This document shows positions 24,995-30,711 of a stretch of DNA of 64,000 bases, one piece after another. The stretch lies in the NCBI GenBank assembly GCA_965219455.1, contig OZ244744.1:4768001-4832000 (forward strand), read 5' to 3'. Position 1 is the stretch's first letter; each line of letters begins with the position of its first letter. The DNA comes from Candidatus Latescibacterota bacterium (GTDB lineage: Bacteria; Latescibacterota; UBA2968; GCA-2709665). A program made the position numbers and the translations under genes. The notes below the pieces were generated by a model, which was given only the letters and a program-made list of their open reading frames with translations, was not told the origin of the DNA and did no database searches.

Positions 24995-26973
<1,979 letters not shown>

Positions 26974-27052: not shown

Positions 27053-27249
27053 ACATACCGATCGGCGGTCCTGCTGCGACACCTCACGACCGCCCGGTGG
27101 ATCGGAGGGGGCTTTTCCGCGCTATTCCGTTCAACAACATAGTCCGGGAATGCCTGCGCAGGCCGCAGGGCAACGGCTTCGCGTTCTTTCCACAGCGGTG
27201 GTTCGCGGAAAAGCAGCCCCGCGGCGTCTGAGCGGCGCCCTTCTTTTTC

Positions 27250-27282
27250 GCCCTTTTTCTTGGGCGATGCAAGAAAAAGGGC
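27250..27282. terminator. Strong stem-loop (terminator-like or dispersed repeat)
   Basis: 13-bp perfect stem GCCCTTTTTCTTG / CAAGAAAAAGGGC with a 7-nt loop. Confidence 0.45.
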
Positions 27283-27362
27283 AAGGGAATAGGGGACGTT
27301 AGAGTCTTACAGTGTGACTTCTACGCAAAATGCGTAGATAATTATTCATGCTGCTTGTTTAG

Positions 27363-28915
27363 CCTCAATGCGAAAATAATGTTGATGAATTTCGGGGTAT
27401 TGAAGACTAAGCGAGAATGCGAATAAGTCTATATTTTTCAATAGGAAAAGGCCTTCCATTTTGGTATATTGGGAAGCGACAAACGACCCATTTAACCCAA
27501 AACGAAAGGCCACGTACAGTGAGACGAAAGAAAGCGGATTTGCACGCGCGTGTCAACGACAATTTGAAGATGGAATTCACCGGTGAAGGCCTCACCTCGT
27601 ATGCGGGTTTGGAACTGTTGATGCGATATTTGCGAAACGTGGATTGGAACAGGCAGTTGCGCCGTCACCTGGGCAGTGTGGGCTTTGGCGGCGATTTCGG
27701 TGTGGTGAGCCTGTGCCGTGTTCTGTTGGGTTTGCTGTGGGTAGGCGGCCGTCGGTTGCGGCATCTGGATTTCTTGAAAGGAGATCCCCTGCTGCAGCGG
27801 TTTTGCGGTCTGACGGATCTACCGACCCCCCGCAGCGTGAGTACGTTTCTGAGACGGTTTTCCGACAAGGGTCTCAACGCCCTGAAAGCCCTCAACGCCG
27901 ACGTGGTTGCCCATAAGATCAACCTGTTGCGCGCCCGAAAATTGACGATCGACGTGGACGGCACCGTCTTGTGCACCGGAAAACGCGTCGGCGGTGCCCG
28001 CCGCGGGTATAATCCGCATCATCGCAAAGTCCCCAGTTACTATCCGATCACCGCCTACCTGGCCGACAGTGGTCATTTTCTGGGCGTGCACAACCGGGCA
28101 GGCAACGTCAATGATGGCAGCGCCTCCATCCTGTTTCTAAAGGACGTGTTTTCCCAGATCAAAGAGACCTTGGGACACGCCTACACTCTGCGATTCCGCA
28201 TGGATGGCGCCTTTTTCAAAGAGGATGTGGTGAACACGCTCATCAAGAACAAGGCCTCGTATGCCATCAAGGTACCCTTCTGGAAAGGCCTGGACTTACA
28301 GCACAAAATCCGTCAATGCAGCAACTGGCAGCGCATCGAGAAGGGCGTCGACGGCTTCACGTCAACGCTGACGGTCAAAAAATGGAAACGCACCCTCAAC
28401 ATTGCCATCTTTCGAAAACGCGTGATGCATCAAACCCGAAAGAACTACCAGTTGGACCTGTTCGATCCCGATGATGGCACCTTCGAATACAGTGCGGTGG
28501 CTACCAATCTACCCTTCAAGTTGCGCGCGCTCTGGCGCTTCATGGCAGGCCGTGGTGCCCACGAAAAAGCCATTGGCGAACTCAAGACCGGACTTAGCTT
28601 CGATACCATCCCCACGCACCATTACCACGCCAATAGTGCCTGGCAACAGTTCGTCATTCTCGCGCACAACCTCCTGGTCAACTTCCAAATCGAAACCGGA
28701 CTCACAAAACGCAATCGCACCTTGAAAAATACCAACCGATGGCCGCTCAAATCCATACGTACTCTCCGGTTCGAGCTCATCAACCGAGCCGGACACCTCG
28801 TGCGACCCGAAGGGCGTCTAACCCTGCGCCTCCAACGCAACAAGCACACCGAAAAACAATACCGTAAAATCTGCAACGCGCTCCAGAAAGCCGCCTGATT
28901 TATTTCACATTGAGG
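27363..28915 (+). mobile_element. IS1380-family insertion sequence
   Basis: TIRs CCTCAATGCGAAAATAA / TTATTTCACATTGAGG; imperfect 4-bp flanks TTAG/TTAA. Confidence 0.85.
27519..28898 (+). CDS. IS1380-family DDE transposase
   Basis: LTSYAGL, TIDVDGT, GYNP...YYP, RMDGAF, RGAHEKAIGELK; likely GTG start at 27519. Confidence 0.9.
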   Translation: MRRKKADLHARVNDNLKMEFTGEGLTSYAGLELLMRYLRNVDWNRQLRRHLGSVGFGGDFGVVSLCRVLLGLLWVGGRRLRHLDFLKGDPLLQRFCGLTDLPTPRSVSTFLRRFSDKGLNALKALNADVVAHKINLLRARKLTIDVDGTVLCTGKRVGGARRGYNPHHRKVPSYYPITAYLADSGHFLGVHNRAGNVNDGSASILFLKDVFSQIKETLGHAYTLRFRMDGAFFKEDVVNTLIKNKASYAIKVPFWKGLDLQHKIRQCSNWQRIEKGVDGFTSTLTVKKWKRTLNIAIFRKRVMHQTRKNYQLDLFDPDDGTFEYSAVATNLPFKLRALWRFMAGRGAHEKAIGELKTGLSFDTIPTHHYHANSAWQQFVILAHNLLVNFQIETGLTKRNRTLKNTNRWPLKSIRTLRFELINRAGHLVRPEGRLTLRLQRNKHTEKQYRKICNALQKAA

Positions 28916-30432
28916 TTAATTGTAGGGTGTTGATGGTAAAGGGTCAAAGACAAGGCGAGTATTTTGTGCCCTTCGGGTGTGACGCGCCACCGTCTGGACC
29001 GTGGGATTTTTGCAATAAGGCCGCGGACGTGTAGGCGTTTGAGGCGGCGGCTGGTGGCATTGGCGTGCCGAGTGCGTTGCAGCAGGGATGCTGGATGTTG
29101 GAAGAGGTGTGTTCGGATGTCCTGGTTGCGGAAGCCCATCAGGGCGTGTTCGCCTTTCAACACAGCGGTAAACAGGGCGAGGTCGGCAGGGTCGGCGGGG
29201 TTGAAGCCCCGATAGGTACGTCCCTTGTGCCTGCGTGGCCGCGCCAGTGTGGTGAGGCTTTGATGTCCGGTAGCGGCGTCAGGGGCTGCGGACAGCGCCT
29301 GAAAGTAGCGTTGGTTGGCCGTCAACGAGATTTCCCGATAGCGGTAGAGGTTGGCCACGCCTTTGGCCATGGGATACCAGCCCATCACGCGTTGTCCTCG
29401 CCGTATGCCCCAGCGGCGGACCTTGAACTGCCTTGGATGGTTGATCACTGTTTCGACGCGTAGTACGCACCCGTGTTTGTCGTACATTTTAATCCAGTTC
29501 TCGCACATCCGGTGTTTGACTCTTGCGCCTTTGTGGCGTTTGTTTTTGAAGTCCGTGAGGACTTCGCCCTGAAAATTGCCGTGGAGTTTGCGGCCCAGGA
29601 AGGTCAAGATGTCCTGGGGAGAGAAGCACAGCACCGTGTGTCTGAGCAGGTTTTCATACAGCACCTTCAGGGCGTGGGGGCTTTGGAACATCACGTCGGT
29701 GGCGAACTCGGCCTGGTCAACGACCCAGTAGTAGTCCTTGCCCGAAAGCAGGTCGTTGAGCAGGGGGTTGACCTTGCGGGCGAACGCCGAGAGAATGCGC
29801 GGCCAATTCTTGCCCACAAAACGATCGGCAAAGCGTTGCGCCCGGTCCACATCGGCAATCCATAGAAAAGCGTTGTCTGATTTTTCATAGGCGATGCCGT
29901 GTTGCTCGAGCTTGCGCGCCAAGAACTCGTGGCCATTGAGACAGATCTGCACCACCAGCGGGAACCAGGACTGGATGCGGATATGCATCAACCCGAACTC
30001 CCGGTCAATCCAGTAAAAGTAGTAGCATAGGCATTTCCGTTGTGCGTTGATCAGGCGAGGCCTTCCTTCCCCTGGAACCAGCTTGAAACTCTGGCAGCCT
30101 TCCAGGGCCCGAAACACACAGACCAGGCCTTGCGTGATCCCATCGTGTTTTGCCAACCGTCGCGCTTCGTCCTCTTTCCTGATGGTGTTGCGTTGCAGAT
30201 AGATGAACGGGCGCTCGTGCTTGTTTGCCATCGCCTCCGCGTGGGCTTTGATCGTATCGGAATGCGTCATCACAAAACGCTTGAAGTCCTTCAACAATAA
30301 ACCCTGATTGCTGATGAACCGCTCCATCGCAGTTCCAAATCCCAGCGGCAGGTACCCTTTGAACAGAACCCGATCAAAACAGGATACCACTCCGGTGATT
30401 TATTCACTACATTGGTCCACGAAGTCTTTCAC
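28900..30432 (-). pseudogene. Uncharacterised transposase-like protein (KMYDK...LRVET motif, C-terminal wHTH-like), with a nonsense at codon 11 and a 3' end cut by IS1380
   Basis: AGGAGG RBS then GTG: MKDFVDQCSE*ITGVVSCFDR...; the native tail KQAA* is found left of the IS1380 (27353-27358 and adjacent). Confidence 0.65.
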
Positions 30433-30711
30433 GGCGTTCCTCCTTCCATTGATGGCGGTGGGTACCACCATCATAGGGGATGAACGCCGTTTTGCATACC
30501 CTAAAACTATCTGCTCTTGACTACCACCTATTTGGTTGCGGCTGAGCAAAGCGAAGCCGCGTTAGGGAGTGGTGGAACTTCAACCTCACGGGTACCGAAA
30601 CGCGGGTATTTCGACAAGCTTGCTTCGACAAGCTCAGCGTAAACAACGCAAGCCACGCGACGAGACAGGACAAATCGGGCGGAAGCATGGTGACATCAAT
30701 CTGGGGCGATA

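Follow-up and report, generated by a model that had tools for sequence, protein, structure and literature searches.

The locus described here raises the question of what kind of mobile element is enclosed by two identical CGTTAG hexamers in the genome of a Candidatus Latescibacterota bacterium, and by which enzyme this element is moved. The hexamers are located at positions 27297-27302 and 30560-30565 of the window, a stretch of 64,000 nt that comprises positions 4,768,001-4,832,000 of contig OZ244744.1 (assembly GCA_965219455.1, one contig of 5.84 Mb), and two nested elements are found between them. A sequence-only reading of the window had proposed that removal of the inner one, an IS1380 family element, leaves a unit of about 1.7 kb without terminal inverted repeats (TIRs), with a hairpin inside each end and with one open reading frame (ORF) of about 510 aa for a Rep-like enzyme. 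That a mobile element with these ends and a short fixed target is present is nearly certain. The best explanation, which we consider probable, is a new insertion sequence (IS) family with a Rep_trans-like tyrosine nickase as its transposase.

After removal of the IS1380 and of one of its flanking tetramers, the host element has a length of 1706 bp. On the minus strand of the window, its main segment with the candidate transposase gene and the 5′ end covers positions 28920-30563. The 3′ end segment (27301-27362, minus strand), which ends with ...GTAAGACTCT followed by AA of the flank, is separated from the rest by the IS1380. A BLAST search with the 1706-bp unit placed this segment at genome positions 4795303-4795362, where the similarity of 10 copies stops. 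In total, 11 copies could be identified in the genome at unrelated loci with identities of 93-100% (six about 100%, four 97% and one 93%), and the similarity ends at the same bases in all of them. Because 11 copies at different loci share these end points, the observation is beyond chance, and the unit expected after the removal of the IS1380 does exist. The expected lack of TIRs was confirmed as well, since none could be found by a repeat search of the 1706-bp unit. Within the phylum the element is patchy and was found in seven of 168 genomes, the genome of the window included; among the 14 other genomes of the genus, it is present in four. Single-gene units of 1.7-2.2 kb were found in many phyla, where they often make up an entire short contig. 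The element is best read as an autonomous insertion sequence that belongs to a large family named by no source.

The genomic context of the copies bears on an alternative, in which the element is first of all a very small rolling-circle replicon or satellite that is integrated now and then by its own Rep protein. This alternative draws on the closest structural relatives of the protein, which are replication initiators and relaxases, and on the archaeal Rep-Arvir initiators, which share a layout of a TATA-binding protein (TBP)-like domain and a winged helix-turn-helix (wHTH) domain and serve a virus that integrates and excises (PMC13107129, available in part). All examined copies, however, are chromosomal and have host flanks (11 in the genome of the window and about 12 in genome G050), no circular contig or back-joint could be found among the assembled contigs, and a unit of 1.7 kb offers no space for an additional origin apart from its ends. 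A replicon of this kind is considered very unlikely.

Insertion could be followed directly at empty sites. The window copy is inserted into a genomic repeat of about 250 bp, the left half of which covers positions 27100-27300 and the right half positions 30564-30680. Two paralogues of this repeat (L012 and L013) hold the joined halves and read uninterrupted ...GGGAATAGGGGA-CGTTAG-GGAGTGGTGG..., which is exactly the empty site that had been predicted from the window as ...GAATAGGGGA-CGTTAG-GGAGTGGTGG.... At a second locus (L008), the flanks of the element are directly joined in 12 of the 14 genomes available from this genus, and 161 and 325 bases are located between them in the other two. Eight of the 12 empty sites were fetched, and all eight read ...GGTCCC-CTAA (or CTAT) AAG...; the filled locus reads CCC-CTAG...element...GACT-CTAA-AAG. 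At a third locus (L004), assembled contigs of the runs X5 and X7, which belong to two studies, skip exactly 1706 bp (with four ambiguous letters), and the contigs of run X1 contain the locus in its filled form. The element is polymorphic in natural populations. From these three independent kinds of empty site it follows that insertion neither duplicates nor removes target bases.

In gene orientation, the 5′ side of the copies has the form flank-CCT^A(A/G)-N-hairpin and the 3′ side the form ...TCT^AA-flank, where ^ marks the junction. The target could be reconstructed for 35 copies from eight lineages and is CCT^AA in 28, CTT^AA in six and TCT^AA in one of them; copies from the same genome are not independent in this count, and three Victivallales rows with uncertain 3′ ends were left out. 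The second base after the 5′ junction tracks the subfamily (A in L001-L004 and L011, G in L005-L010) and is element-borne, since a G is present where the orthologous empty site has an A. The base two positions before the junction is target-borne, as it differs between five Victivallales copies with identities of 99-100%. These element-borne and target-borne bases together place the joint at CC^TAA or CCT^AA. The element is inserted at the pentamer CCT^AA, or one base leftward, without duplication or loss of target bases.

Other placements of the junction were rejected or disfavoured. TTAG as a target site duplication was rejected, because in six copies TTAG on one side is paired with CTAG on the other and the empty sites are single-copy. 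Variation of the base two nt upstream of the Victivallales junction speaks against an edge cut before CTAA, and the subfamily-linked R and the empty site speak against one after CTAR. The Victivallales 3′ junctions were withdrawn as support for the mid-cut, since these copies continue past the canonical end.

In the window, CGTT of the left hexamer (27297-27302) is target flank, with the junction T^A at 27300/27301 or, one base rightward, at 27301/27302. For the right hexamer (30560-30565), the mid-cut reading assigns CGTT to the element end and AG to the target flank. Both of the CGTTAG bounds named by the sequence-only reading are thus present, and only their TTAG/YTAG part is general: CG of the left hexamer is chance flank, since other copies carry T, A or G there, and CG of the right hexamer is element-borne. 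In the same way, a fixed insertion core exists as had been proposed, and this core is the pentamer CCTAA/TTAGG instead of CGTTAG.

The 3′ subterminal hairpin of the window copy is located at positions 27320-27338 on the minus strand, 19 nt from the junction (plus strand TCTACGCA-aaa-TGCGTAGA, minus strand TCTACGCA-ttt-TGCGTAGA). The 5′ subterminal hairpin (30538-30560, minus strand) has the form GCGGCT-(11 nt)-AGCCGC and is followed by AACCAA in gene orientation. Folding of single DNA strands resulted in z-scores of -2.0 to -2.8 for the end at 27320-27338 and of about -1 for the end at 30538-30560; the hairpins carry weight due to their conservation and not due to their folding energy. For the analysis of this conservation, related loci were sought in 185,579 species genomes with a 14-sequence alignment as query, which revealed 218 stretches encoding relatives, of which 79 loci were kept.

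Of 62 distinct loci, 36 have a YYTAR motif at the 5′ side with a GC-rich hairpin 0-2 nt behind it. Among the misses are contigs that are cut at the element end and one set of six copies, in which the end lies about 510 nt upstream, outside the scan window, with the same architecture. The 5′ stems co-vary (GCGGCT/AGCCGC, GCGGGC/GCCCGC, GCGGCC/GGCCGC, GCGGC/GCCGC, TCCGGC/GCCGGA and GTGGCC/GGCCAC), and AACC nearly always follows the hairpin. Among the 3′ ends, 34 distinct ones have a hairpin with YCT^AR behind it, with varying stems and a spacing of 14-23 nt in 31 of them (2, 6 and 6 nt in the remaining three); this hairpin co-varies across lineages, too. The loci bearing these ends originate from metagenome-assembled genomes (MAGs) titled Latescibacterota, Planctomycetota, Desulfobacterales, Acidobacteria, Gammaproteobacteria, Verrucomicrobiota/Victivallales, Armatimonadota, Chloroflexi and others. 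Both hairpins, which had been noticed in the window, are therefore kept across phyla by compensatory changes, and homologs of the protein do carry these ends, with YCT^AR-N-GC hairpin-AACC on one side and hairpin-(14-23 nt)-TCT^AA on the other.

Furthermore, the genome contains MITE-like derivatives of about 140-330 bp, in which only the two element ends are kept (about 60 nt and about 90 nt) around unrelated filler. They are located at genome positions of about 2727330-2727565, 2600500-2600664, 4718400-4718655, 3095300-3095668 and 680929-681200, share an unrelated core (...GAGCCCGTTTGA...CCCCTTGAGGGGGAGTCGCAGAAGCCGAGCC...) and are probably mobilised in trans.

Some copies depart from the common structure. 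One copy in the genome of the window (L003, 2451593-2453281) is cut short behind the 3′ hairpin, so that its final 17 nt, with the TCT^AA junction, are missing and unrelated sequence adjoins. In G050, two partial copies are arranged head to tail (C15, 527097-530190), the first cut about 300 nt before its 3′ end and the second without its first 39 nt including the 5′ hairpin. In the Victivallales MAG G168 (L143-L149), the similarity of five of six copies runs on for at least 514 nt past the canonical ...TCT^AG 3′ end; the shared stretch takes in the start of another ORF, and the 5′ flanks of these copies differ. This extension could be the product of a read-through transduction, as known for IS91, ISCR and Helitrons, or a longer variant with a passenger gene.

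As the sequence-only reading had stated, the element contains one gene. In intact copies it encodes 509 aa, for example at positions 1483-3009 of L004 with a GTG start codon 6 nt after GGAGGA. The gene of the window (28920-30432, minus strand, GTG start at 30430-30432) is broken twice, by a TAA stop that replaces codon 11 (30400-30402, minus strand) and by the exchange of the last five codons for IS1380 sequence, and the window copy is dead. A weak hint at transcription comes from run X12, a metatranscriptome labelled sponge metagenome, whose contigs cover only positions 1432-2603 of L004, i.e., the 3′ two-thirds of the gene, and neither the flanks nor the 5′ third; DNA carry-over is possible, and these contigs were not used as evidence.

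The protein could not be assigned by sequence. No Pfam family was matched by the protein at E ≤ 0.1 and no NCBIfam family by the 496-aa window form at the same threshold, with no match to any transposase modelled there (DDE, DEDD, serine and others), and the IS1380 control reached 219 bits in the same scan. Among PDB sequences, phmmer and a 68-sequence profile resulted only in wHTH matches (E ≥ 0.03), PHROGs only in wHTH regulators, and the ESM Atlas only in unnamed clusters, with no usable named cluster for residues 1-386. The earlier remark that no DDE motif is recognisable in the ORF agrees with these searches and with the predicted fold, which is TBP-like and not RNase H. Relatives are numerous, with 4043 found among 8000 candidates scored in one collection and 7174 matches at E ≤ 1e-3 in a search of cluster representatives. 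The top 120 relatives have no Pfam domain, all but one of the named ones are called "hypothetical", and most are encoded on contigs of 1.7-2.2 kb. An alignment of 68 family members with identities of 30-87% was built, in which D20, R21, G26, G102, E111, Y138, Y140, G147, P158, N166, N187, W236, E242, Y317, R325, E327 and G488 are invariant. Compared with Pfam, these members matched 58 families at E ≤ 10, and those listed were only wHTH families such as HVO_A0261_N (23 of 68 members).

For the structure, AlphaFold2 returned a confident full model with a predicted local distance difference test score (pLDDT) of 91.6 and a predicted template modelling score (pTM) of 0.85 (90.0 and 0.88 for the domain alone). 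Residues 1-386 are predicted to form a two-lobed TBP-like domain, and residues 385-509 of the intact protein a winged-helix DNA-binding domain (codons about 385-499 in the window, 28935-29278, minus strand). The latter resembles HxlR, MarR and MexR proteins in the VIA search (Z 9.0-9.2), which fits the weak wHTH matches in Pfam and PHROGs and bears out the wHTH-like tail that had been recognised in the ORF. In a Foldseek search of the PDB with the full model, the top match was the Rep_trans protein RepSTK1 (4cij, E 3e-3, probability 0.97). In BFVD, seven matches had E ≤ 1e-3; the listed matches are a mixture of TBPs of giant viruses and Inoviridae proteins and include A0A345MNV4 at E 1.4e-3, an Inoviridae Rep_trans initiator; Rep_trans proteins adopt the TBP fold (PMC13107129, available in part).

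The domain alone was compared by VIA with 48,161 representative chains. Both lobes were spanned with at least about 175 aligned residues by TBPs and Rep_trans proteins, and nearly all other rows cover one lobe or far fewer residues. For TBPs, Z was 8.4-7.3 with the domain alone (best Z 8.4, 177 aligned residues, root-mean-square deviation (rmsd) 3.5) and 8.2-8.9 overall, with 177-180 of about 181-189 residues aligned. Over all VIA comparisons, the Rep_trans chains reached Z 7.1 (4cij_A, 195 aligned, rmsd 4.7), Z 6.5-6.9 (4cwc_A, 174 aligned at Z 6.5) and Z 7.3 (4cwe_A, 200 aligned, rmsd 5.1). On the predicted model, the protein has the two-lobed TBP-like catalytic fold of Rep_trans enzymes.

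In Rep_trans enzymes, the catalytic Tyr191 belongs to an R-x-Y-x-K motif on one strand, the residues D46, D142 and E214, which bind the metal, are distributed over three strands, and the motifs R-x-D-x-A-x-D and L/W-x-R-x-E are present (PMC4797284 and PMC5714925, both available in part). In an alignment of RepC family and enterococcal Rep proteins, these residues were invariant at these numbers. Similar motifs could be identified in the 509-aa family. D20 (codon 30373-30375, minus strand), which is invariant in all 68 members, is a proposed metal ligand and counterpart of RepD D46, and its surroundings read S-x-F-D20-x5-G26-x-L28 compared with S44-F-D46-x5-G52-x-L54 in RepC. Q240-x-E242-x-A244-x-D246 (29695-29715, minus strand) resembles motif I of Rep_trans, R140-x-D142-x-A144-x-D146. 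The segment K315-M-Y317-D-K319 ... L324-R325-V-E327 (29452-29490, minus strand) contains the proposed catalytic tyrosine and motif IV: K315-M-Y317-D-K319 is invariant or nearly so on a predicted strand (312-319), and L324-R325-x-E327 would correspond to L-W-R212-V-E214. D20, E242, Y317, R325 and E327 lie on separate predicted strands in the order of the Rep_trans motifs N′, I, III and IV. A second invariant set consists of E111, Y138, Y140 and R152 (window about 30130-29975, minus strand), with the two tyrosines on one strand of lobe 1; it could provide a second nucleophile, as in Y2 enzymes, or be part of the same cavity.

Several results weigh against a Rep_trans-like nickase. At the sequence level, PF02486 has no match in the genome (the Bacillus subtilis control was positive), and Rep_trans is not among the 25 listed of the 58 Pfam families matched by the 68 members. 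Using hhalign, full profiles were compared with RepC alone and with an 11-sequence Rep_trans alignment, neither with a significant result; the probability was 0.3-0.35, and the sole aligned segment placed SCFDRxxxxGxL on SFDxxxxxGxL of RepC. For the catalytic halves, the best local match was K315-x-Y317-x-K319 on R189-I-Y191-N-K193 with E 0.0077 versus 0.025 for the reversed control. A global alignment of these halves was meaningless and was discarded. The proposed equivalence of the active sites draws on motif order and predicted strands. The fold matches are of middling strength: Z is 6.5-8.9, in a range that the tool calls common, and E in Foldseek is about 1e-3. A Foldseek search with the domain alone did not sharpen the Rep_trans match, as an ARO/CYC cyclase came first (E 6.9e-4) and 4cij followed with E 4e-3. 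At the DNA level, the element junctions lie outside the hairpins and the pT181 nick within a hairpin loop, and three Victivallales rows had to be dropped from the target count because the similarity of five of six copies continues for at least 514 bases more. No replication-strand bias was detected in the 11 copies, since six of 11 fit one replication orientation, with ori and ter guessed from GC skew. Neither a circle junction nor a back-joint, circular contig or tandem joint was found among the contigs of four runs; contigs drop rare forms, and this lack says little. Finally, the genome has two weak Y1_Tnp (PF01797) stretches at 1.91-1.92 Mb, which could supply an enzyme in trans.

The statistical points would fit a transposase whose chemistry is unrelated to Rep_trans, for example hydrolytic metal-dependent cleavage through the acidic residues, with a convergent or coincidental fold and YxK/RxE motifs. 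Profile-profile scores do not exceed the controls, the Z-scores are common ones, and E111, Y138, Y140 and R152 are invariant with no stated counterpart in Rep_trans. Against this stand five motifs that follow the Rep_trans order and fall on matching predicted strands of a common fold, and duplication-free insertion at a fixed short sequence beside hairpins, which is the signature of single-strand tyrosine nucleases and not of staggered DDE cuts. An unrelated chemistry appears unlikely.

The Y1_Tnp stretches bear on a further alternative, in which the element is mobile and its protein serves only as DNA-binding accessory factor or regulator, with cutting and joining done in trans by another enzyme, for example a Y1 HUH transposase or a host recombinase for which the hairpins serve as recognition sites. 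TBP itself is a DNA binder and scores slightly above Rep_trans, no sequence-level link to any nuclease was found, and the end architecture is like that of IS200/IS605. Both Y1_Tnp matches are partial, however, covering profile positions 40-121, and many phyla contain units of 1.7-2.2 kb that carry this gene and no other. An invariant tyrosine together with three invariant acidic residues and with R/K neighbours, arranged as in Rep_trans, would be unexpected for a mere binder, and the hairpin sequences change together with the protein lineage. This division of labour is regarded as quite unlikely, and the 509-aa protein is most likely the transposase.

That this transposase is a Rep_trans-like tyrosine nickase remains a likely assignment. 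On sequence comparison, the Rep_trans correspondence is consistent and not statistically established, so that the earlier proposal of a Rep_trans-type enzyme is supported by the predicted fold and the active-site motifs and not by the sequence-profile statistics. Transposons are classified by the chemistry of their transposases into those with DDE, DEDD, HUH, serine or tyrosine recombinase, Cas1 and reverse transcriptase enzymes. The lack of inverted repeats, hairpin ends and a fixed short target without duplication is the behaviour of the single-strand tyrosine nucleases of IS200/IS605 and IS91. We lean, by a narrow degree, towards a new class of prokaryotic transposons, with a transposase from the TBP-fold Rep_trans/Rep-Arvir superfamily of tyrosine nickases and a third, non-HUH route to single-strand or rolling-circle transposition.

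In the proposed mechanism, the protein would recognise the two subterminal hairpins on one strand, and Tyr317 would nick YCT^AR at both ends and form a 5′-phosphotyrosine, with a metal held by D20, E242 and E327. The element strand might then be released as a single-strand circle with the junction ...TCT-AR..., as in IS200/IS605, or alternatively by rolling-circle displacement as in IS91. A circle or tandem junction would join ...GTAAGACTCT to A(A/G)CGCGGCTTCG..., and the released strand would be joined into a target CCT^AA. As the junction lies centrally in a near-palindromic tetramer, the cut strand cannot be read from the sequence. Read on the plus strand, the window has the order TT^AG, 18 nt, hairpin ... 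hairpin, G, YT^AG, which presumably resembles that of IS608.

Among the closest known systems are the Rep_trans rolling-circle initiators and the MOBT relaxases (PF02486; RepC of pT181, RepD of pC221 and RepSTK1; 4cij, 4cwc and 4cwe). Shared features are a two-lobed TBP-like catalytic domain, here a predicted one, and a DNA-recognition domain C-terminal to the catalytic domain; proposed counterparts are an invariant tyrosine on a β-strand within (K/R)-x-Y-x-K, three acidic residues on separate strands, L-R-x-E and an N-terminal strand with S-F-D-x5-G-x-L. The origin of pT181 offers a further likeness, since the loop CTCTAA of its IR-II hairpin (L051 4356-4380, between the stems CCGGCTA and TAGCCGG) contains the junction pentamer TCTAA of the element. 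ACTCTAA of pT181 is identical to the last bases of the element together with its flank (GACTCT^AA). RepC and RepD nick within this loop, at a position that we take to be TCT/AA; the papers place the nick only in the loop, and a literature search with GGCTACTCT for the nick position returned only unrelated papers. In contrast to Rep_trans, the element protein has no detectable sequence homology to the family, its catalytic domain is about 150 residues larger, its C-terminal domain is a true winged helix, and its gene is located in a multicopy chromosomal insertion element and not in a plasmid, phage or integrative and conjugative element.

The Rep-Arvir proteins (DUF7845, PF25227) are similar in that a TBP-like catalytic domain is followed by a wHTH domain, the link to Rep_trans is one of structure only, a DNA hairpin serves as cis site, and the Foldseek matches are of the same kind, i.e., giant-virus TBPs and the Inoviridae Rep A0A345MNV4 (PMC13107129, available in part). 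They differ from the element family in being archaeal and not bacterial and in belonging to a virus or plasmid replicon and not to an IS; PF25227 had no match in the genome despite 11 element copies, with a positive Haloferax control.

With IS200/IS605 (IS608 and ISDra2), the element shares the lack of TIRs, subterminal hairpins, a fixed site of 4-5 nt without duplication and non-autonomous derivatives with hairpin ends. Unlike in IS200/IS605, the enzyme is not of the HUH/Y1 type (no PF01797 match), has 509 aa compared with about 150 and a different fold, no bias towards the lagging-strand template, which marks that family, was seen in the orientation of the 11 copies, and the two ends have nearly identical cleavage motifs. 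IS91, ISCR and Helitrons are comparable in the target tetranucleotide that abuts one end, the missing duplication, hairpins near the ends and the possible carry-over of 3′ flanking DNA seen in the Victivallales copies. They differ in their HUH/Y2 domain and helicase, neither of which is present in the element according to Pfam and NCBIfam, and Helitrons are much larger.

The nested IS1380 family element is located at positions 27363-28915 (1553 bp, plus strand) and carries a transposase ORF at 27417-28898 for a 493-aa DDE protein, which matches Pfam DDE_Tnp_1_4 (E 5e-33) and NCBIfam NF033539 (IS1380, 219 bits versus a cut-off of 180). Its inverted ends CCTCAATG.../...CATTGAGG are 82% identical over 22 nt, and it is flanked by TTAG (27359-27362) and TTAA (28916-28919), so that the transposase model, the short terminal inverted repeats and, with one mismatch, the 4-bp flanking repeat of IS1380 are all present. 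Seven full-length copies with exactly the same boundaries are found in the genome. The flanking tetramers of the window copy differ by one base, although this copy is 100% identical to five others. In host-element copies that are intact, the insertion point is spanned by ...CTTGTTTAGTTGTAGG....

A group II intron is situated just upstream (25021-26973), with Rfam matches to group-II-D1D4-4 (25021-25158, 96.5 bits) and to domain V/VI of Intron_gpII (26827-26973, 47.2 bits) and a reverse transcriptase/maturase ORF at 25446-26816 with RVT_1 and GIIM. Together with the IS1380 and the 1706-bp element, three classes of mobile elements are thus found within 6 kb. The host repeat of about 250 bp contains a perfect 13-bp hairpin (GCCCTTTTTCTTG/CAAGAAAAAGGGC) at 27250-27282, and parts of its right half match dozens of further places in the genome.

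The known carriers of Rep_trans enzymes are plasmids, filamentous phages and conjugative transposons (PMC13107129, available in part). A description of such an enzyme as a transposase could not be found by full-text literature searches, which were judged largely by abstracts and did not extend to subscription journals and ISfinder. Since the element is small (1.7 kb, one protein, short ends and a 5-nt target), the proposal is directly testable. The family comprises thousands of protein clusters in many bacterial phyla that are annotated as hypothetical. If the proposed assignment is true, a new class of transposases would be added, and thousands of "hypothetical" genes that break metagenome assemblies into contigs of 1.7-2.2 kb would be explained. 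The bacterial Rep_trans and archaeal Rep-Arvir initiators would then be linked to a chromosomal selfish element, and this link would bear on the movement of nickases between replication, conjugation and transposition.

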